Assembly (NCBI GenBank): GCA_963789715.1
Contig: CAWBLQ010000011.1
Span: 9,263-73,262, forward strand
From: Candidatus Binataceae bacterium
Lineage (GTDB): Bacteria; Desulfobacterota; Binatia; Binatales; Binataceae
Direction of reading: 5' to 3'
DNA length: 64,000 bases
The position numbers and the translations under genes were made by a program. Under the pieces are notes generated by a model. The model was not told the origin of the DNA and did not search any database. It was given only the letters and a program-made list of their open reading frames with translations. Positions 32,731 through 64,000 of this stretch are shown piece by piece; within the stretch, counting starts at the first letter, position 1; each line of letters begins with the position of its first letter.

Positions 32731-34107
32731 GTGATAACAAAGCGCCCTATGGCGCCAATTTCTTTTCCAAAAGGATTTCTGTGGGGGACCGCCAGCGCGT
32801 CCTACCAGATCGAGGGCGGCTGCAAGGAAGACGGCAAGGGCGAGTCCATCTGGGATCGCTTCTCGCACACGGCCGGCAAGATTAAGCGCGGCGACACCGG
32901 CGACGTCGCGTGCGATTTCTACCACCGCTACGCGGACGACATCGCGCTGATGGAAGAGCTCGGCCTCAACGCCGCGCGAATCTCGCTCTCATGGCCGCGC
33001 ATCATGCCCACCGGCAAGGGCCCGGTTAATCAAAAGGGCCTCGACTTCTACGACCGGGTCGTGGACGAGATGCTCAAGCGCAACATCCAGCCGTGGGTGA
33101 CGGTCTATCATTGGGACCTGCCGCAGACGCTCGAGGATGCTGGCGGATGGCCGAATCGCGACCTCGCCGAATATTTCCGAGACTACGTCGCCGCCGTAGC
33201 CGACTCGCTCGGCGATCGCGTGAAGCATTGGATGCCATTCAACGAGCCGTGGATCTTCACGATGCTCGGCTACCACATGGGAATCCATGCGCCGGGACGG
33301 CATGAGTCGGAGAAGGCGTTTCAGGCGACGCACACCGTCAACCTCGCGCAGGGCATGGCGGTCAAAGCGATTCGCGAATCGAAGAACAAGCCGGAGGCCG
33401 TCGGCGCCGCGTTCAGCATGTCTCCGGTGCATCCGCAGACCGGGTCGCTCGAAGATCGCACGGCGGCCGAGCGATGGCATCGGTTCTACAACATGTGGTT
33501 CCTCGATACCGTGATGCGCGGCAAGTACCCGGAGGCCTACCTGCACGGTTCGGTCGAGGACCATATCGATATTCGGGACGGCGACCTGGAGGTCATCAAG
33601 GCTCCGCTGGACTTCATCGGAATCAATCTGTACACGCGGGTTGTCGTCGCCCACGATGGGAGCGATCACACGATGGGCGTGAAGCAGATCCGAACCGGCG
33701 GCGAAGAGATCACGGATTTCGGCTGGGAGGTCTATCCGCAGGCGCTCTCGGAAATGATCCTGCGCATCAGCAAAGACTACGGTGGGTTGCCGATCTACGT
33801 GACCGAGAACGGATGTTCATACGGCGATCGGCCAGGCGCCGACGGCAAGGTCAGCGACCAGCGCCGCGTGAGTTTTCTGCGCCGTTTTATCGGCGAGGTC
33901 GGACGCGCGATGAAGGCCGGCGCCGACGTGCGCGGCTATTTTCTATGGACCTTCACCGACAACTTCGAATGGGCCGAGGGATTCCAGCAGCGCTTCGGGA
34001 TCGTGTACTGCGACTTCCAGACGCAGCAGAGAATCGTGAAGGAGAGCGGCCACTGGTACGCGCGGCTCGCGCGCACCGGCGCGCTCGATTTCGACCCGGT
34101 CGTTTGA
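32731..34107 (+). CDS. GH1 beta-glucosidase
   Basis: It has GH1 signatures (FLWGTASASYQIEGG, the catalytic NEP and ITENG-like YVTENG). Confidence 0.92.
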   Translation: MITKRPMAPISFPKGFLWGTASASYQIEGGCKEDGKGESIWDRFSHTAGKIKRGDTGDVACDFYHRYADDIALMEELGLNAARISLSWPRIMPTGKGPVNQKGLDFYDRVVDEMLKRNIQPWVTVYHWDLPQTLEDAGGWPNRDLAEYFRDYVAAVADSLGDRVKHWMPFNEPWIFTMLGYHMGIHAPGRHESEKAFQATHTVNLAQGMAVKAIRESKNKPEAVGAAFSMSPVHPQTGSLEDRTAAERWHRFYNMWFLDTVMRGKYPEAYLHGSVEDHIDIRDGDLEVIKAPLDFIGINLYTRVVVAHDGSDHTMGVKQIRTGGEEITDFGWEVYPQALSEMILRISKDYGGLPIYVTENGCSYGDRPGADGKVSDQRRVSFLRRFIGEVGRAMKAGADVRGYFLWTFTDNFEWAEGFQQRFGIVYCDFQTQQRIVKESGHWYARLARTGALDFDPVV

Positions 34108-53634: not shown

Positions 53635-54225
53635 TCAGTTGGAAGTTGCGGGGGCGGGGCTGGCTTGCGCGGGTTGGGCGGCGGCGGCGACGCCGAGGTC
53701 GTTGAGAATTTCGATCGCGTGGGTGGAGGGATCGACGCTCGGATAGACTTTCAGAACCTTGCCATTCTCGTCGATTACGTAGGTGATGCGCCGATCGAGG
53801 CCGAGGATCGGGATTCCGTTTGCGGCGCCGTAGGCCTTTGCGATCTTCTTGTCGGGATCCAGCAGGAGCGGGAACGGCAAACTGTTCTTGCGGATGAAAT
53901 CCTTGTGCGCTTCGGCGGAGTCGATGCTGCATCCGAGGACAACCAGGCCGGCGTTGGTGTAGCGCGAGTAGCCGTCGCGGAACGCGCACGCCTCCTTGGT
54001 GCATCCCGAGGTCTCATCCTTGGGATAAAAATAGAGGATTACCTTTTTGCCGTGGAAGTCGGCGAGCGAAACCGGAGCCTCAGTTTCGCCGGTTACCATC
54101 TGGGTGCTGAACGGCGGCGCGATCTGCCCTTCCTTGATCAATTCGGCACGTGCAGTTCGCGGGCGCAGCGCGACGCCGACGACGATGACTGCGATTGCGA
54201 TTAGTCCGACGGTGAACATTTTCAT
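53635..54225 (-). CDS. bcp: Secreted peroxiredoxin (Bcp/PrxQ-like)
   Basis: GGAGGGGAAGG precedes the ATG at 54225. It has a signal peptide and a thioredoxin fold with the peroxidatic FYPKDETSGCTKEACAFRD. Confidence 0.8.
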   Translation of the reverse strand: MKMFTVGLIAIAVIVVGVALRPRTARAELIKEGQIAPPFSTQMVTGETEAPVSLADFHGKKVILYFYPKDETSGCTKEACAFRDGYSRYTNAGLVVLGCSIDSAEAHKDFIRKNSLPFPLLLDPDKKIAKAYGAANGIPILGLDRRITYVIDENGKVLKVYPSVDPSTHAIEILNDLGVAAAAQPAQASPAPATSN

Positions 54226-54349: not shown

Positions 54350-55207
54350 TCACCCGCGCCTGAATTTGGCCTGGCGTTCGGCTTCGAGCGCGTCAGCGAC
54401 TTCGCGCGCCGGCCGCTCGGGCATCCATCCCCTGGTGTAGTCGATGTCTTCCCAGGATCGATCGTTGGCGTCCCAGACATAGGGCAGCTCGACGATTGAT
54501 CCGGGAGCGCTGATAGCCTCGAACGCGCGCATCGCATCGGCGACGATTCGGCGCTGCAACTCGGGTTGATCGGGCGGGCCGGTCTGATGGCCGAGGGGAA
54601 AATTGACGAACACCGCGCGCGGCGGCTTCACGGATTGCGTGATGTCGAGCGCCGACGTCATCGAGAGAGTGGGAATTCCCGCTGCCTCCACCGCGCGCGC
54701 GATCAGTCCAACGGACTGATGGCAGACGGGTCATGCGGGGACCAGGAAGAAGGCGTCGGCGCGGGCGCGTTTCAACTCGTCAATGATTTGCGGTGCGAGT
54801 TCATCGCGGACTTTGCGCGCCGAGTAAATTCCGCCCATGAAGCTGAACGCGGGATCGACCAGCGCGCCGATCACGCCGGCCGCTTCAAGCTCCCGCATCC
54901 GCTGCAGCGGGAAGACGCAGTTGGCGTCGCGCTCGGCGTCGCGGGTGGGATAGCCGAAGTGCCACACGCTGAGCTCGTCGGGTCGGGCGTGAATCGGGAT
55001 GCGGCGATACGACGCGTCCTCGCGATGGAAGCGCGGCTGATCGCGATACATGATTCCGCCTGAACTGATCATGGCGATCCTGCATTCGGCGACCGGCTTG
55101 GCGAGCGGCGTGAACGGCGTCGATTCATTCTCGACCCATCGGTAGGGAGTGAAATCGCTGTAGAGATCGCGCGTGCGTGGAATGTATGCGACCGGCATGG
55201 CTTTCAC
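54350..55207 (-). CDS. GrdB/PrdB-family (glycine/sarcosine/betaine/D-proline reductase selenoprotein B-like) selenoprotein; selenocysteine at the in-frame TGA 54731..54733
   Basis: Track ORFs 54731..55207 and 54350..54691 are in the same frame, separated only by a TGA. The joined product reads ...DAFFLVPA-U-PVCHQSVGLIARAVEAAGIPTL...PRAVFVNFPLG, with a U-x-x-C motif. The flanking blocks (NCVFPL...ELEAAGVIG...FSFMGG, then U..CH.S...GIPT...PRAV) match my recollection of PrdB/GrdB. Confidence 0.7.
54702..54720 (-). promoter_or_regulatory. SECIS-like stem-loop 11 nt downstream of the in-frame UGA
   Basis: On the mRNA the sequence is UGA-cccgucugcc-AUCAGUCC-guu-GGACUGAU, an 8-bp stem starting 11 nt after the UGA. 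Confidence 0.45.
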
Positions 55208-55261
55208 TCTATCACGATCGCGAGCACGACGGCTTGCGCGCGACCGTCGCGCATATCCTTG

Positions 55262-55740
55262 TGTCGCTCATGGCGTGGCCGTCCTGGTCGCCGTAGCCGT
55301 TGGCGTTTTGGTTGCCGTTGCAGTCCTGGTCGCGGTAGCCGTTGGTGTCCTGGTTGCCGTAGCCGTCCTGGTCGCCGTAGCCGTCCTGGTCGCCGTAGCC
55401 GTAGCCGTCCTGGTTGGCGTTGCCGTCCTGGTCGCCGTAGCCGTCGCCGTCCTGGTTGGCGTTGCCGACCTGGTCGGCGTGGCGGTTGAAGTAGCAGTTG
55501 GCGTTTCCGTCCGGGTTGCGGTTGCCGTAGTAGTCGCGGTTGCGGTTGCCGTCGCGGTTGCGGTCGCCGTCACGGTTGCAGTCGCCGTCGCGGTTGCGGT
55601 CGCCGTCCGGGTTGCGGTTGCCGTCGGAGTCGCGGTCGCTGTTGCAGTTGCCGTCGCGGTCGCGGTTGCGGTCGCGGTCGCGGTTGGAGTCGCGGTTGGA
55701 GTCGCGGTTGCCGTCGCGGTCGGGGTCGGGGTCGGGAACG
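55262..55740. repeat. Cryptic simple-sequence tract with (GCN GTN)n periodicity encoding the (Thr-Ala)n and (Thr-Pro)n tail of paralog C
   Basis: It runs about 480 bp with 6-nt to 18-nt periodic units (gccgtagccgtcctggtc and the like). Confidence 0.7.
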
Positions 55741-56476
55741 GATCCACGAAGCTGCAATTGCAGACGCCTTGTCCGCTACCCAGCGCTACGACCCCGGCGC
55801 ATGTTTCTGGCAGTCCAGCGAGTTCCCCCGCATCCGGAGTAGTGGTCGAGAAATTCTGTTCGGTGACCTGAGTATTCTGTACGTGAGTCGCCCAGGCGAC
55901 CAGTGGATTGGCACTCGGAGTCAGCCTTCCATCGGAGGTGCCGCCCGCGGTCGGATCGCAGCACATGCCGGTGCTGGGGTCGCAACCTTCGTAGGCAGGA
56001 ATCTTCAGCGGGTTTGGAGGTTGAAGGGCATTTGGCGCGACCGACAGAATACGGATCGACCCGTTGCGAAGAACTTGCCCGCTGGCCAACGGGTTCTCCG
56101 CAAGATCAGGGGTGACGCTGAGCTCCAACAGACCATCGGCGGTCAGCGGGCATCCGCAGCAGGACTGCAGCGCCTGGTCGGTATCGAAGACGTAGATCAT
56201 CGCGCAAGTTTCGCCCTCTCGCAGCTCCAGGCTGGTGGCGGTTGAATTTCCCTCGAAGGGCGCCGTGATACTGACGAGACCCTGTTGAAACCCTCCGAGG
56301 TGGGCGTTGCTGAAATAGTTCTGCAACTCCGGCCCGGCCTCCTCGGACTCCGCCGCCGCCATGCGTGGCCACGCCGACGTCGCGATGGCCGCGGCCAGAA
56401 GAATCATTATGGTTGTGTTGAGAACTCTATTACGTAAATGCATTCTTGTGATCGACACCAACAGCGCTCGGTCCAT
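55268..56476 (-). CDS. Secreted Cys-rich domain protein, paralog C: conserved 8-Cys domain at the N-terminus, then a long (TA/TP/TR)n low-complexity tail
   Basis: It has a signal peptide (MHLRNRVLNTTIMILLAAAIATSAWPRMAAA) and a domain about 50% identical to paralogs A and B (ELQNYFSN...CAMIYVFDTDQALQSCCGCPLTADGLL...GSIRILS...CDPSTGMCCDP...QGVCNC). The alternative starts are GTG 56485 and ATG 56443. Confidence 0.8.
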   Translation of the reverse strand: MDRALLVSITRMHLRNRVLNTTIMILLAAAIATSAWPRMAAAESEEAGPELQNYFSNAHLGGFQQGLVSITAPFEGNSTATSLELREGETCAMIYVFDTDQALQSCCGCPLTADGLLELSVTPDLAENPLASGQVLRNGSIRILSVAPNALQPPNPLKIPAYEGCDPSTGMCCDPTAGGTSDGRLTPSANPLVAWATHVQNTQVTEQNFSTTTPDAGELAGLPETCAGVVALGSGQGVCNCSFVDPFPTPTPTATATATPTATPTATATATATATATATATATPTATATRTATATATATATVTATATATATATATTTATATRTETPTATSTATPTRSATPTRTATATATRTATPTRTATATATRTATATRTATATRTPTATATRTATATKTPTATATRTATP

Positions 56477-56918
56477 GCGCAGCACTGCTCGCTGGAATTC
56501 GCTCCCCGTCTTGCGGAAATCGGCGTATCGTTAGTCTTCCCACCGAAATGTTCAGGTGGCGTGTGGCTGCATATCATGAATACCGCTAGCTGTGTCAATC
56601 CGATCGCGTCGATCGACGCGCGAACGGCGACCAGTTAGACCATTGACTGAAAGAAGCCGGCGTGAATAACGGATTTTCAGACACTTCAAGAGATGAGTAG
56701 TTCACGCCTGAGACGGAAATGCGGGTCAAAAATGAAAATTGTGTTTAACGCCGTTCGCTGATGGGTGCTGGTGGGTCTCGCGAAGATTCGGGTCGAAATT
56801 CTGCGCGGGAATCTTGCTCACCAAACCACTCGCGCCTTTTTCAAAAGCTGATCTCGCGCATGCGGCATGTACCGATCCGATGCAGGTTTGCAAGCACCGT
56901 GGGCGGCGCCGAAGCCGG

Positions 56919-57929
56919 CTACTTGAAACGCGGCAGCACCTCGGCGCCGAATCGATCCAGCGAGCGCCGCGCCTTGGCGGGATCGAGTCCCGGCAACTGC
57001 GTCACGACGATCAGCTCCGTCATCGGAGTCGTGGCGAGTATTTCGTCGAGCCGTGCGGCGACCTCGGAGGCCGTTCCCAGCACGCTGGTGCGTCTGAGAC
57101 GGTCGGGGTCGGGGCGAATCAGCACCTTGCTCTGGTCAGCGGTGCCGGCCGCCGCGGCGAGCCATTTGCCGTAGAGCTCGGCCTGGTACATCAGCGCGTC
57201 GCGCGTGTCGCGCCACGCCTGTTCTTCGCTGTCGGCGATGTAAACCACGCGGCTGTTGACGATGCTGAAGCGCGCCGGGTCCTTGCCGGCGTCCTTGAGC
57301 GCTTCGAGGTAGATGCCAATTTCCCTGCGGCCGCCGACGCATGCGAACGACAAATCGAGCTCGGCTGCGCGCCGAATCGATTTTGCAGCGCCGGCGCCCC
57401 ACAGCAGCTCGGGATGCGGCTGACTAACGGGCCGCGGCAGCACGCGCGCGTCGCGAAACTTGAAATATTTGCCGTCGAAACTGAATCGCTCGCCGCTCCA
57501 CGCCAGTTTGAGAATCTCAATGGTCTCGAGCGTGCGGCCAAGGCGCTGCGCGCGCGGCACGCCGAAGCCCTCGAACTCCTCGGCGCGGTAGCCGAGACCA
57601 ATTCCGAGCCGGAGCCGGCCGCCCGAGACTACATCGACGAAGGCAGCATCCTCGGCAAGCTTCAGCGGATGATAAAACGGCGCCAACAGGACGTAGGTGC
57701 CGATGCTGACGCGCCTCGTGCGCGCCGCGATAGCCGCGGCCGCGGGCATCAGCGCGGGCAGGTAGCCGTCGTCGGTGAAGTGATGCTCGGTGAGCCAGAT
57801 GGAATCGAAGCTGAGCTGCTCGGCGGCCTCAACCTGCGCAAGCGATTCGCGGTAGAGATCGCGAAATGACACAGTCGAGCCTGGCGGATTGCGGAAATCG
57901 AGCTGATAGCCAACTTTCACCTTGTGCAC
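56919..57929 (-). CDS. LLM-class (luciferase-like) flavin-dependent oxidoreductase
   Basis: It has a TIM-barrel LLM pattern (SFDSIWLTEHHF...LLAPFYHPLKLAEDAAFVDVVSGGRLRLGIGLG). Confidence 0.85.
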   Translation of the reverse strand: MHKVKVGYQLDFRNPPGSTVSFRDLYRESLAQVEAAEQLSFDSIWLTEHHFTDDGYLPALMPAAAAIAARTRRVSIGTYVLLAPFYHPLKLAEDAAFVDVVSGGRLRLGIGLGYRAEEFEGFGVPRAQRLGRTLETIEILKLAWSGERFSFDGKYFKFRDARVLPRPVSQPHPELLWGAGAAKSIRRAAELDLSFACVGGRREIGIYLEALKDAGKDPARFSIVNSRVVYIADSEEQAWRDTRDALMYQAELYGKWLAAAAGTADQSKVLIRPDPDRLRRTSVLGTASEVAARLDEILATTPMTELIVVTQLPGLDPAKARRSLDRFGAEVLPRFK

Positions 57930-57959: not shown

Positions 57960-58739
57960 TCAGCGTGCGGCGAGACCGCCGTCGACGATCAATTCCGTGC
58001 CGGTGATGTAGGACGCGTCGTCGGAGAGGAGGAAGACGATTGCGTTTGCGATTTCCCACGGCGTGCCCTGGCGGCGCATCGGGATTCGTGGGGCGACGGC
58101 GCTCTCGCGGTCGCCGACGAGGCGGCGCACCATCGAGGAATCGATCAGGCCGGGCAGGATGGTGTTGACGCGGATGTTGTCGCGCGCGTGCGAAACCGCG
58201 GCCGAACGCGAGAGTCCCAGCAGCGCGGCCTTGGTCGCCTCGTACGAAATCTGCGAGTTACTGCGCATCGCGGCCAGCGACGAAACGTTGACTATGGCGC
58301 CGCCGCCGGCTTTCGCGATCTCAGGCACCGCGTACCGCATCATCAGGAAATGGCTGCGCAGGTTGACGGCGAGCATCGTGTCGAACTGCTCGGTGCTGGT
58401 CTTCAACAGATTGCCGCCGATCGCGATGCCGACGTTGTTCACGAGCAGATGGAGCGCGGAGAACGCGCGCGTCGCGGCTTCGACGGCGCCGCGGCATTGC
58501 GCTTCGATGCTGACGTCGGCGGCGACCGCGTCGGCACGGCCGCCTTCGTCGCGAATTGCGGCGGCGGTCTGCTGCGCGAGCTCGAGCGAGCGATCGGCGA
58601 CTATCACGGCCGCTCCTTCGCGCGCGCACATTATCGCGGTGGCGCGGCCGTTGCCGATGGAGAGCTTGTCGCCGGCTTTCGCCGGTCCGTCCGCGCCGCC
58701 GCCGACGATTAACGCTACCTTGCCCGTCAGACGAGCCAT
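57960..58739 (-). CDS. SDR family oxidoreductase
   Basis: It has GKVALIVGGG, NNVG and YEATKAAL. Confidence 0.85.
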   Translation of the reverse strand: MARLTGKVALIVGGGADGPAKAGDKLSIGNGRATAIMCAREGAAVIVADRSLELAQQTAAAIRDEGGRADAVAADVSIEAQCRGAVEAATRAFSALHLLVNNVGIAIGGNLLKTSTEQFDTMLAVNLRSHFLMMRYAVPEIAKAGGGAIVNVSSLAAMRSNSQISYEATKAALLGLSRSAAVSHARDNIRVNTILPGLIDSSMVRRLVGDRESAVAPRIPMRRQGTPWEIANAIVFLLSDDASYITGTELIVDGGLAAR

Positions 58740-60706: not shown

Positions 60707-61300
60707 TCACGGTGCGTTCGACGCGGGATGGTGATCCTTCAGGAGCGCGCCGCAGGCCGCGATGGCGGCGAGGACGCCGTCGGCGACGCGGCCGGCCTTC
60801 ACCGTTGCCAGGAATCTATCGACGATTTTGTTCCACGCTCCGGCGGGCGCGAGGGCGTGGGTCTCATGGTCGGCGACGATCTCCACGTAGCGCTCGCCGA
60901 GCGACACAAATAGCAGGATTAGGTGCCGCTGCTCGGGATTTGCGAGCACGTGCGCGTTGAATTCGCGATGCGCCAGTTGCCATGCGTGAGCATGCTTGAC
61001 GCGCTTCGGTACGATCGAGAGGCGGGCCGGCAGCCATTCGAGCGGCAGCATCGTCAGAGCCAGGAACCATAGTTGGATCATGATCACGGTGCGGCTCGCG
61101 ATATCGGGCCGAATCAAACTGACGAGCCCGCCCAGCAGAATTGCGCCGATCGCGGCCCACGCGACCGGATAAAGGGAATAGCGATCGCTGACGCGAGTCA
61201 CGACGACGCAAAAGTCGGCGGCTGTATCGTGCTTGATCGCGGCCATCGCGGCGTCGATGCGCTCGTGCTCATCGGACGTGAATGGCCGTTTCTGATTCAC
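60707..61300 (-). CDS. TPM-domain protein (second TPM of the LemA module)
   Basis: The GTG start at 61300 overlaps the upstream TGA (GTGA). The N-terminus is FTSDEHERIDAAMAAIKHDTAADFCVVVT, which is TPM-like, followed by a hydrophobic region. The longer 233-aa track ORF reads the Gly-rich tail of the upstream gene in another frame. Confidence 0.6.
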   Translation of the reverse strand: MNQKRPFTSDEHERIDAAMAAIKHDTAADFCVVVTRVSDRYSLYPVAWAAIGAILLGGLVSLIRPDIASRTVIMIQLWFLALTMLPLEWLPARLSIVPKRVKHAHAWQLAHREFNAHVLANPEQRHLILLFVSLGERYVEIVADHETHALAPAGAWNKIVDRFLATVKAGRVADGVLAAIAACGALLKDHHPASNAP

Positions 61301-62094
61301 CAGCTTCCCGAGGCGCCGCCGCCGCCGAACGATCCACCACCGCCGGAGAAGCCGCCGCCACCGGAAGATCCTCCTCCAGAAGATCCGCTGGACCATCCAC
61401 CGGACCATCCGCCACCGCCATACCTCATCCAGTCATGCGGGTCATTGCGATGCCTGAACCAGGCAACCAGGAAAAATCCCCATGCGCCAAAGAATAACAC
61501 GCACCAGATGACGAGCCCCACGTATGCCTGCCACGGAGCCGACAAGAATGGAATCGGCGTCGGCACTGGTGCTGGGCTGATCGGGTTCCCGCCGAGCACC
61601 TGGAGTATCGACGTGGTGCCGGCGAGGATGCCGGCGTTGAAGTCGCCGCGCTTGAAGCTGGGCAGGATGTTGTTCTGGATTATCGTCGCGCTGATGGCGT
61701 CGGTGAGTGTTCCTTCGAGGCCGTAGCCGACCTCGATGCGAACTTTGTGCTCCTTGGGCGCGACGATAAGCAGCGCGCCGTTGTTCGTGCCTTTCTGCCC
61801 GATGCCCCAATGGCGGCCAAGCTGATAGCCGTAATCCTCAATCGTATATCCCTGTAGCGACCCGAGCGTGACCAGCACGACTTGTTGGCCGGTTGCGCGT
61901 TCGTGGTCGGCCAGCATGAGGGTGAGTTTGCCCACCGTGTAGGAGTTGAGGACGCCTGCATCGTCCACTACTCGGCCGGTGAGCGGCGGAAATTTCGGCC
62001 CGGAGGCGAGGGCAGGTGACGCGAGGATCAGCAGGAGAATGAGCCACGCCCATCGCGCGCCGGAGAGATCCGCGCTTGCGCAGCGAGAGCGCAT
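61297..62094 (-). CDS. TPM-domain (YgcG-like) membrane protein with a Gly/Ser-rich C-terminus
   Basis: It has a signal peptide, a TPM domain (LTGRVVDDAGVL...LLIVAPKEHKVRIEVGYGLEG), a TM helix and a GGGWSGGWSSGSSGGG tail. Confidence 0.75.
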   Translation of the reverse strand: MRSRCASADLSGARWAWLILLLILASPALASGPKFPPLTGRVVDDAGVLNSYTVGKLTLMLADHERATGQQVVLVTLGSLQGYTIEDYGYQLGRHWGIGQKGTNNGALLIVAPKEHKVRIEVGYGLEGTLTDAISATIIQNNILPSFKRGDFNAGILAGTTSILQVLGGNPISPAPVPTPIPFLSAPWQAYVGLVIWCVLFFGAWGFFLVAWFRHRNDPHDWMRYGGGGWSGGWSSGSSGGGSSGGGGFSGGGGSFGGGGASGSW

Positions 62095-62696
62095 CAGAAT
62101 TTGACCTGCGGCACCTGCTGGCTTTGCTCGGAGATCGTGAAAGTCTCGCGAACTTTCATATCAGGGTAGAGGATCGATGCCACCCATCGGCCTGGAATGG
62201 TCCGGAGCGTGGTGTTGTAGTCCTGCACCGCGAGAATGTAATCGCGGCGCGCCACCGCGATGCGATTCTCGGTGCCCTCGAGTTGCGATTGAAGCGCAAG
62301 GAAATTCTGATTCGACTTGAGGTCGGGGTAAGCCTCGGCAACCGCGAGCAGGCGGCCAAGCGCGCCCGTAACAGCGGCCTGGTTCTGCTCGAACTCGTGA
62401 AACGCCTGCGGGTTCGACAGGATGTCCGCTGGAAGCAGCATCTGGGTCGCATGCGCGCGCGCTTCGGTCACCTGGGTCAGGACATTCTGCTCCTGATGGG
62501 CATAGCCCTTGACCGTCTCGACAAGGTTCGGGATAAGGTCGGCGCGCCGCTGATACTGATTGAGCACTTCGCTCCAGGCGGCCTTCACATTCTCGTCGAG
62601 GGTCGGGATTTTGTTGATGCCGCAGCCCGCGAGTCCGCCGACCACGATTCCGAGAGTCGCCATGCGAGCCAGCACGCGAGCGTATTTGAACCGCAT
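62094..62696 (-). CDS. lemA: LemA family protein
   Basis: It has an N-terminal TM/lipobox and LemA helices (AAWSEVLNQYQRRADLIPNLVETVKGYA...AVARRDYNLAVQDYN-like). Confidence 0.85.
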   Translation of the reverse strand: MRFKYARVLARMATLGIVVGGLAGCGINKIPTLDENVKAAWSEVLNQYQRRADLIPNLVETVKGYAHQEQNVLTQVTEARAHATQMLLPADILSNPQAFHEFEQNQAAVTGALGRLLAVAEAYPDLKSNQNFLALQSQLEGTENRIAVARRDYILAVQDYNTTLRTIPGRWVASILYPDMKVRETFTISEQSQQVPQVKF

Positions 62697-63440: not shown

Positions 63441-64000
63441 TTACTTCGCCGACACGATCATTTCCTCGACGTCGCGCAGGCGATCCTTGCCAAAGAAGAT
63501 CTCGTCGCCGACGTAAAAGGTCGGTGAGCCGAAGGTGCCGCGCGCAACCGATCGATTGGTGTTCTCGAGCAGTTGGTCCTTGACCGGCTGGGTCTCGATC
63601 AGCTCGAGGATTCGCGCGGCCTCCAGTCCCGCCTCGTCCAGCGCCGCGCGGAACACGTTGGGGTCGTCCATCTTTTTGGGCTCAGCCCACATATTGCGGT
63701 ACATCTCGTCCACGTAGCGCTCGAATAGGCCGAGCGACCGCGCGGCGATCGCTCCGCGCATCATCGTCAGTGTGTTCACCGGAAAAAATGGATTGCTTTT
63801 GAACCTGGTAATCCCAAGCCGCTTGATGAAGCGGGTCGTCTCCAGCCGCTCGTACTCAGGCTTGTTCTTGATCCCCGCCAGGCTTTGCGCCGGCGAGCGA
63901 TTGTTGGTCATCTTGAAAACGCCGCCCAGCAGCACCGGCACGTACTCGAACTTCACGCCCGTGCGCTTTTCGATTTCAGGAATTACGAGGTGGCTCAGAT
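63441..64000 (-). CDS. 2-hydroxychromene-2-carboxylate isomerase / DsbA-like thioredoxin-fold protein (N-terminus beyond the window end)
   Basis: The frame stays open to 64000 (…LSHLVIPEIEKRTGVKFEYVPVLLGGVFK…). The C-terminal GSPTFYVGDEIFFGKDRL is typical of HCCA isomerase/DsbA-like proteins. Confidence 0.65.
   Translation of the reverse strand, partial: LSHLVIPEIEKRTGVKFEYVPVLLGGVFKMTNNRSPAQSLAGIKNKPEYERLETTRFIKRLGITRFKSNPFFPVNTLTMMRGAIAARSLGLFERYVDEMYRNMWAEPKKMDDPNVFRAALDEAGLEAARILELIETQPVKDQLLENTNRSVARGTFGSPTFYVGDEIFFGKDRLRDVEEMIVSAK

Follow-up and report, generated by a model that had tools for sequence, protein, structure and literature searches.

A probable stand-alone PrdB-like selenoprotein gene with an in-frame UGA codon and a SECIS-like hairpin in a Candidatus Binatus-type genome

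Gene organization and the in-frame UGA codon

The analyzed 64-kb stretch of DNA (further referred to as the window) belongs to a Binataceae genome with 63% GC, which agrees with the non-clostridial high-GC host presumed from the sequence alone. Two annotated ORFs on its minus strand, 54731..55207 and 54350..54691, have a common frame with one TGA (54731..54733) between them, and the region 54350..55198 is, at a probability of about 0.9, one gene for a stand-alone PrdB-like selenoprotein of the GrdB/PrdB superfamily (PF07355) in a Candidatus Binatus-type genome (Table 1). The joined translation around the UGA reads ...DAFFLVPA-U-PVCHQSVGLIARAVEAAGIPT..., in a longer excerpt ...ADAFFLVPA-U-PVCHQSVGLIARAVEAAGIPTLSM..., with LVPA-U-PVCHQSVGLIAR as the peptide spanning the Sec; the immediate context, LVPA-U-PVC-HQS, contains the U-x-x-C motif claimed in the initial sequence-only reading in the form of U-P-V-C. 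The start was placed at the ATG and not at GTG 55207, the homologues opening with MPVAY or MPIAY. Two further in-frame-TGA candidates in the window, at 34105 (plus strand) and 50196 (minus strand), were merely adjacent genes sharing a frame and were rejected. Scanning for promoters and terminators around the PrdB-like gene gave nothing above background.

Table 1. Positions of the features discussed, in the window and, for tRNA-Sec, in the loci of three related genomes
Feature	Position	Strand	Remarks
PrdB-like selenoprotein gene (predicted), complete	54350..55198	minus	282 codons including Sec; ATG at 55198; stop TGA at 54350-54352
In-frame UGA, predicted Sec codon (U of U-P-V-C)	54731..54733	minus	TGA in 81/81 Binataceae
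U-P-V-C redox motif (predicted), Sec and Cys three residues on	54722..54733	minus	from translation
SECIS-like hairpin	54698..54724	minus	lower stem of 3 bp (54724-54722 / 54700-54698), 1x1 internal loop
Upper part of the hairpin	54720-54713 / 54709-54702	minus	8-bp stem; apical loop GUU 54712-54710
Bcp/PrxQ-type peroxiredoxin, hydrophobic N-terminus	53635..54225	minus	downstream, 124-nt gap; PF00578, E = 1e-35
Cys-rich 405-aa protein, hydrophobic N-terminus, long Pro/Thr/Ala repeat tail	55268..56485	minus	upstream
LLM-class (luciferase-like) oxidoreductase	56919-57929	minus	Pfam; upstream, same strand in 39-44 loci
SDR	57960-58739	minus	Pfam; upstream, same strand in 48-61 loci
tRNA-Sec, L031	1253-1344	minus (locus orientation)	RF01852
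tRNA-Sec, L041	3894-3985	minus (locus orientation)	RF01852
tRNA-Sec, L068	3055-3146	minus (locus orientation)	RF01852

Conservation of the UGA among relatives

The genome scan recovered 80 species-level MAG loci of Binataceae / Candidatus Binatus with 69–91% identity, making 81 sequences together with the window. The position of codon 54731..54733 was occupied by TGA in all 81 species genomes, in contrast to the terminal stop of the same gene, which was TGA in 29, TAG in 26 and TAA in 26 of them. A codon fixed as TGA in 81 lineages next to a terminal stop that varies evenly is therefore no ordinary stop. The C-terminal half past the UGA remained in frame and was 75–94% identical in the Binataceae loci. 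Between the TGA and the GTG annotated as the start of the downstream ORF lie 13 codons that were conserved near-perfectly in the 81 Binataceae sequences and are therefore coding; around the TGA, FFLVPA*PVCHQSVGLI had a single P-I-C variant in the 81 sequences. Since TGA also ended 30 of the 50 genes in the window, being the commonest ordinary stop there, a reassigned genetic code is excluded.

A metagenome scan with distant truncated forms as seeds yielded 83 further diverse sequences. TGA was present at the Sec codon in 77 of these 83, with a read-through of 85–130 codons where the contig allowed, and four others with sequence at this codon had either TGC (L089, L090, L165) or TGT (L088). Thus, the proposal that the two annotated ORFs constitute one selenoprotein held, and the outcome that would have spoken against it, i.e. 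orthologues present as two genuinely separate genes lacking a conserved U/C codon, was not encountered. These comparisons show strong selection to retain the UGA at 54731-54733, with the in-frame translation running on for 126 codons behind it.

The SECIS-like hairpin

The stem-loop that had been noticed 11 nt past the UGA was recovered as AUCAGUCC-GUU-GGACUGAU (window 54720..54702), its stem opening with nucleotide 11 behind the UGA. Folded as a single sequence, it was modestly better than the shuffles (z = -1.72), which by itself is no proof, so the case rests on the comparison with relatives. In the Binataceae, the codon entropy of the stem codons for H, Q, S, G and L was 0, 0, 0, 0.23 and 0 bits, respectively, against a mean of 1.11 bits in the 124 other columns in which the amino acid is conserved, just one of which was equally low, while the loop Val codon (GUN) used all four third bases. 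The near-invariant H-Q-S-V-G-L is encoded by the stem-loop itself (54702-54720, minus strand), so the protein and RNA constraints overlap in this stretch. Covariation was not visible within the Binataceae alone: the upper stem is invariant there, and compensatory changes can therefore be seen solely in more distant members of the family.

A set of 70 diverse sequences was used for the covariation analysis. Pair 18-28 was G-C in 54 and A-U in 15 of them, the exchange being achieved by two synonymous changes (CAG>CAA and CUG>UUG); pair 19-27 was U-A in 56 and A-U in 7, and pair 15-31 was U-A in 48 and C-G in 5. Over the 70 sequences, 90.8% of the stem cells paired, compared to 20–39% when the 3' partner was slid. 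Compensatory cells, with a change on both sides, numbered 33 against 8.6 ± 2.3 in the shuffles, and the covariation score was 0.185 against 0.103, neither value being reached by any of the 500 shuffles. The G22 and U23 opening the apical loop were invariant in the 70 sequences. In the Cys forms L088 and L089, on the other hand, the stem was broken despite an identical or similar peptide (HQSVGL in L088, HQNAGL in L089), from which it follows that the nucleotide conservation reflects an RNA constraint tied to Sec. By the combined evidence of the frozen synonymous sites, the covariation and the loss of the stem in the Cys forms, the hairpin is evolving under RNA-level constraint in the Sec forms only, in line with the SECIS-like element originally suggested.

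The SECIS of E. coli fdhF is a hairpin located in the coding region directly 3' of the UGA, with G-U in its loop. The hairpin found here resembles this type in being intragenic and placed right after the UGA, with the stem at 11 nt and G-U starting the loop. It differs in the size of the apical loop, which is 3 nt as drawn and 5 nt if the closing C-G opens, and in having no evident bulged U. Its position and G-U loop fit a bacterial SECIS, and binding of SelB is predicted by this analogy. Within the whole window, Rfam at gathering thresholds matched two tRNAs and no SECIS family.

Cys homologues, motif variants and structural model

The search of 1.84 billion representative proteins gave 1,638 related clusters at 50% identity, the best 149 of which were inspected. 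Among these best 149 representatives, 59 had CxxC at the aligned motif and 34 ended exactly before the U position. The comparison with orthologues having Cys at the Sec position, proposed as a check in the sequence-only reading, could thus be made with full-length proteins such as P0002 and P0242; the motif region of P0002, with Cys at the Sec position, is LLVPVCPVCHQS. A further homologue, P0104, had Thr at the Sec position.

Several other database proteins, including P0297, P0372 and P0281, have W or G at this position (W-P-V-C or G-x-x-C). Most likely, the depositing pipeline had used code 4 or 25 to translate the TGA. In the metagenome loci L139, L141, L142, L144, L146, L152 and L153, the Sec forms have U-P-L-D, with Asp replacing the second Cys. 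Because the second Cys is missing from this subgroup, a selenenylsulfide cycle is not possible there and is not universal in the family, which points to a different chemistry of the U-P-L-D forms within the PrdB-like family.

An AlphaFold (AF2) model made for the Cys homologue P0002 (pTM 0.80) has a Rossmann-like alpha/beta domain, in which strand 148-152 and the N-terminal end of helix 156-171 flank the first Cys of the motif. A position of this kind, between a strand and the start of a helix, is usual for redox-active CxxC/UxxC motifs. The PDB contained no entry related to the PrdB-like protein by sequence and none specifically by fold.

Family membership

The proposed membership in the GrdB/PrdB family passed the HMM check against PF07355 (GRDB: glycine/sarcosine/betaine reductase selenoprotein B superfamily) with 43.1 bits at a cutoff of 22 (E = 4.4e-11), and the homologues of the protein carry a precomputed PF07355 annotation. 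The best NCBIfam match was TIGR04483 (PrdB) with 166.1 bits (E = 8e-49), covering positions 20-236 of the 238 in the model and residues 32-247 of the joined protein, so that the alignment crosses the TGA; this score is below the equivalog cutoff of 300 bits. With TIGR01918 (glycine/sarcosine/betaine/D-proline reductase selenoprotein B subfamily) the score was 59.6 bits, just under the cutoff of 65.45, and with TIGR01917 (GrdB) it was 56 bits, far under the equivalog cutoff of 602, with model positions of about 219-422 aligned. The models of GrdB, GrdF and GrdH (TIGR01917, NF040794 and NF040795) matched with their C-terminal halves at about 56 bits.

PrdB is the 26-kDa selenoprotein subunit of the clostridial D-proline reductase (Kabisch et al., 1999, as cited in PMC1088965 and PMC13188914); in a 2026 review (PMC13188914) D-proline reductase is listed as TIGR04483 with a UxxC motif, the prd genes are described as normally operonic (prdB-prdC), and the motif of GrdB is given as UxxCxxC. 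The protein described here is homologous to PrdB over nearly its whole length, shares the U-x-x-C and is similar in size, with an additional C-terminal tail of ~35 aa. It differs from PrdB in the sub-equivalog score, in having neither prdA nor any other prd gene nearby, here or in the relatives, and in its high-GC Binataceae host, which leaves a role in D-proline reduction unsupported. The selenoproteins B of the glycine, sarcosine and betaine reductases (GrdB/GrdF/GrdH) belong to the same superfamily and have Sec at the equivalent site. In contrast to the ~430-aa architecture of GrdB, however, the PrdB-like protein is devoid of the N-terminal ~200 residues, there is no third Cys in its U-P-V-C-H-Q-S, and no grdA/C/D/E is found nearby.

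Gene neighborhood

The usual gene order in the Binataceae was SDR - LLM oxidoreductase - (GST) - PrdB-like - MAPEG - Tpx - BluB/cobalamin genes, forming a block on a single strand with short gaps. At least one of GST, MAPEG and Tpx adjoined the PrdB-like gene on the same strand in 72 of the 81 genomes. The downstream slot held Tpx in 57 relatives, for example in L003 and L006 (NF001808, 215 bits); in the window this place, where MAPEG-Tpx usually sits, is taken by a Bcp/PrxQ-type protein, i.e. by another peroxiredoxin subfamily, which scored 102–105 bits with the PrxQ/Bcp models, under their cutoffs. The Cys-rich protein encoded upstream had no match in Pfam or NCBIfam, and its gene has the appearance of a lineage-specific insertion that separates the selenoprotein gene from that of the LLM oxidoreductase. 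Long spurious ORFs in other frames, at 55173-55871 (plus strand) and 55212-55757 (minus strand), arise from the repeat of this Cys-rich protein. Both the Bcp-type peroxiredoxin and the Cys-rich protein, pointed out as neighbors in the sequence-only reading, are real, but each was present at the PrdB-like gene in 0 of the 80 related Binataceae loci, which makes them uninformative, and they were rejected as conserved functional partners. A downstream nitroreductase was also rejected as a partner, being BluB (TIGR02476, 247 bits) of the cobalamin cluster in the Binataceae. In many Binataceae, BluB, CobT-like and CbiB-like genes come after the PrdB-like/MAPEG/Tpx genes, and cobalamin riboswitches were located at the same loci as these genes in L031 (11934-12098) and L068 (17983-18143).

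The absence of grd/prd partner genes and the stand-alone character of this member of the reductase family, both noted before, stood up: there was no prd or grd gene in the window region 32.7–64 kb (Pfam), no prd, grd or sel gene among the recurrent neighbors in the 80 Binataceae loci, and none, PrdA included, in the distant contexts sampled. The neighborhoods of 68 diverse Sec-form loci contained no universal partner; the distant Sec forms adjoin CoA-transferases, acyl-CoA ligases, a molybdopterin oxidoreductase or a nitroreductase, with no link to peroxiredoxins.

Farther along the minus strand of the window, a LemA gene followed by two TPM-domain genes lies at 60707-62696, and the edge of the window is taken up by a DsbA-like thioredoxin-fold gene (63441-63956); parts of this block are syntenic in 5–16 related loci. 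One MAG, MFD00731.bin.1.188, contained two copies of the PrdB-like selenoprotein gene (L004 and L007) on different contigs and in different upstream contexts, which are either true paralogues or the product of a mixed bin.

Selenocysteine-decoding machinery

The sequence-only reading had made its proposal dependent on a Sec-insertion machinery in the genome, and this was borne out in part. On the positive side, three related genomes (L031, L041 and L068; Table 1) have tRNA-Sec at a distance of 2.5–7 kb upstream of their PrdB-like orthologue, the calls being made by ARAGORN and Rfam RF01852 (72 bits vs 47). The window itself contributed nothing: tRNA-Glu and tRNA-Gln were the only tRNAs in its 64 kb, tRNA-Sec was not found there, and no selA/B/D gene was present in the region 32.7–64 kb (Pfam). 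None of the ORFs flanking the tRNA-Sec in L031 was sel-like by inspection of the translations. Since tRNA-Sec is present in three related Binataceae, the lineage decodes Sec; for the organism of the window, Sec decoding is inferred from these related genomes.

Evaluation of alternative explanations

The TGA might be a true stop separating two genes, or a nonsense mutation in a pseudogene, and the public gene callers indeed deposit the two halves separately; the single-sequence fold, with its z of only -1.72, is also compatible with this. Against it stand the TGA found in 81/81 and 77/83 sequences and never replaced by TAA or TAG, the conservation of the downstream frame as protein, which extends to the 13 codons ahead of the presumed GTG start, the full-length Cys forms and the covarying hairpin, by which the true-stop reading is already effectively refuted and its probability has become negligible. 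Readthrough of the UGA by near-cognate or suppressor decoding that inserts, for example, Trp, Cys or Gly, with the hairpin merely stimulating it, would need no selenium and would be consistent with the W or G in some database entries and with the Sec machinery not being visible in the window. This explanation is very improbable, however, since the W/G entries are best explained by gene callers run with codes 4 or 25, genes in the window end more often in TGA than in any other stop, the Sec position swaps specifically with Cys in a CxxC redox motif, tRNA-Sec is present in three related genomes, and both the spacing and the G-U loop agree with a bacterial SECIS of the kind generally known from fdhF.

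Within the selenoprotein reading, the protein could belong, as its PrdB subunit, to a genuine reductase of D-proline (or of another amino acid), with a PrdA-like pyruvoyl partner and electron-transfer proteins encoded elsewhere in the genome. PrdB is indeed its best and nearly full-length family match (TIGR04483, E = 8e-49), the homologues are labeled as D-proline reductase PrdB by JGI, and D-proline reductase is listed with U-x-x-C as well (PMC13188914). At 166 bits the match is, however, far under the equivalog cutoff of 300, and no prdA/C/D/E/F-like gene was found in the window region 32.7–64 kb, in the 80 related loci or in the distant contexts, despite the normally operonic organization of prd genes (prdB-prdC; PMC13188914), so that this possibility is regarded as unlikely, although less remote than the two preceding ones.

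Possible function

In the stand-alone selenoprotein reading, the hairpin would act as the SECIS recruiting SelB with Sec-tRNA(Sec), resulting in recoding of the UGA, as in the established bacterial Sec decoding. The Sec and Cys of U-P-V-C, which would be located where a helix begins within a Rossmann-like alpha/beta domain, may cycle between the selenol/thiol and the selenenylsulfide, as in PrdB. With no PrdA pyruvoyl subunit or other prd/grd gene alongside, either here or in the relatives, the protein would most likely be an autonomous selenol/thiol oxidoreductase and not a D-proline or glycine reductase.

In the Binataceae, the flanking GST, MAPEG and Tpx genes (a Bcp-type peroxiredoxin in the window) weakly point to some connection with glutathione or peroxide detoxification. 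As an indication of a thiol/peroxide redox role the synteny is weak, since it comes from one bacterial family, in which shared ancestry alone could explain it. The broader idea that the orphan PrdB-like selenoproteins form a class of autonomous selenol/thiol oxidoreductases on a Rossmann-like fold, working in the Binataceae together with GST, MAPEG and Tpx/Bcp, is accordingly put forward as a speculative one that may well turn out to be wrong. If true, the orphan PrdB-like proteins might, for example, be the reductant recycling GST/MAPEG enzymes and peroxiredoxins, and the exchange of the peroxiredoxin in the MAPEG-Tpx slot of the window would reflect selection for that partnership.

Relation to known selenoproteins and consequences for annotation

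Stand-alone PrdB-like UxxC selenoproteins, of which this is one from a Candidatus Binatus relative, are a kind known since 2005. The survey of the Sargasso Sea reported 42 such genes (Zhang, Fomenko and Gladyshev, 2005, PMC1088965), and 235 Sec forms and 110 Cys forms of PrdB were given for GOS (Zhang and Gladyshev, 2008, PMC2398784); in these two accounts the family ranks among the most abundant known marine selenoprotein families. The listing by Zhang et al. (2006, PMC1794560) includes PrdB selenoproteins of Anaeromyxobacter and Geobacter and groups them with homologues of thiol-based oxidoreductases. These proteins of marine and soil metagenomes and of Anaeromyxobacter and Geobacter share with the present one the pfam07355 domain, the UxxC motif, the occurrence of Sec and Cys forms side by side and the non-clostridial hosts, and nothing essential sets the member from the Binataceae (Candidatus Binatota) apart from them. 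As far as surveyed, the accounts of the family in PMC1088965, PMC2398784 and PMC1794560 do not mention the local GST-MAPEG-Tpx synteny. The literature surveyed assigns no function to the stand-alone PrdB-like family, and no solved structure resembling it was found; a literature search for selenoproteins in Binatota or Binatia returned nothing relevant.

The finding leaves the knowledge of selenoproteins unchanged; its value lies in correcting the annotation and in pointing to glutathione and peroxiredoxin systems, a link that is testable and weakly supported. For a first biochemical test, the 158 Sec-form sequences with SECIS, the matched Cys forms and the GST-MAPEG-Tpx context provide a guiding data set. 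The annotation error is a recurrent one: the N-terminal halves (~156 aa) are labeled PrdB or selenoprotein B family by JGI/NCBI and the C-terminal halves (103–128 aa) are deposited as 'hypothetical protein', so that hundreds of Binataceae and metagenome records consist of a truncated 'PrdB' and a separate 'hypothetical protein'. As the gene is split in the public records, the use of selenium by a widespread soil lineage has gone unrecorded. The W/G entries produced under code 4 or 25 would be another form of mis-annotation of the same PrdB-like family.
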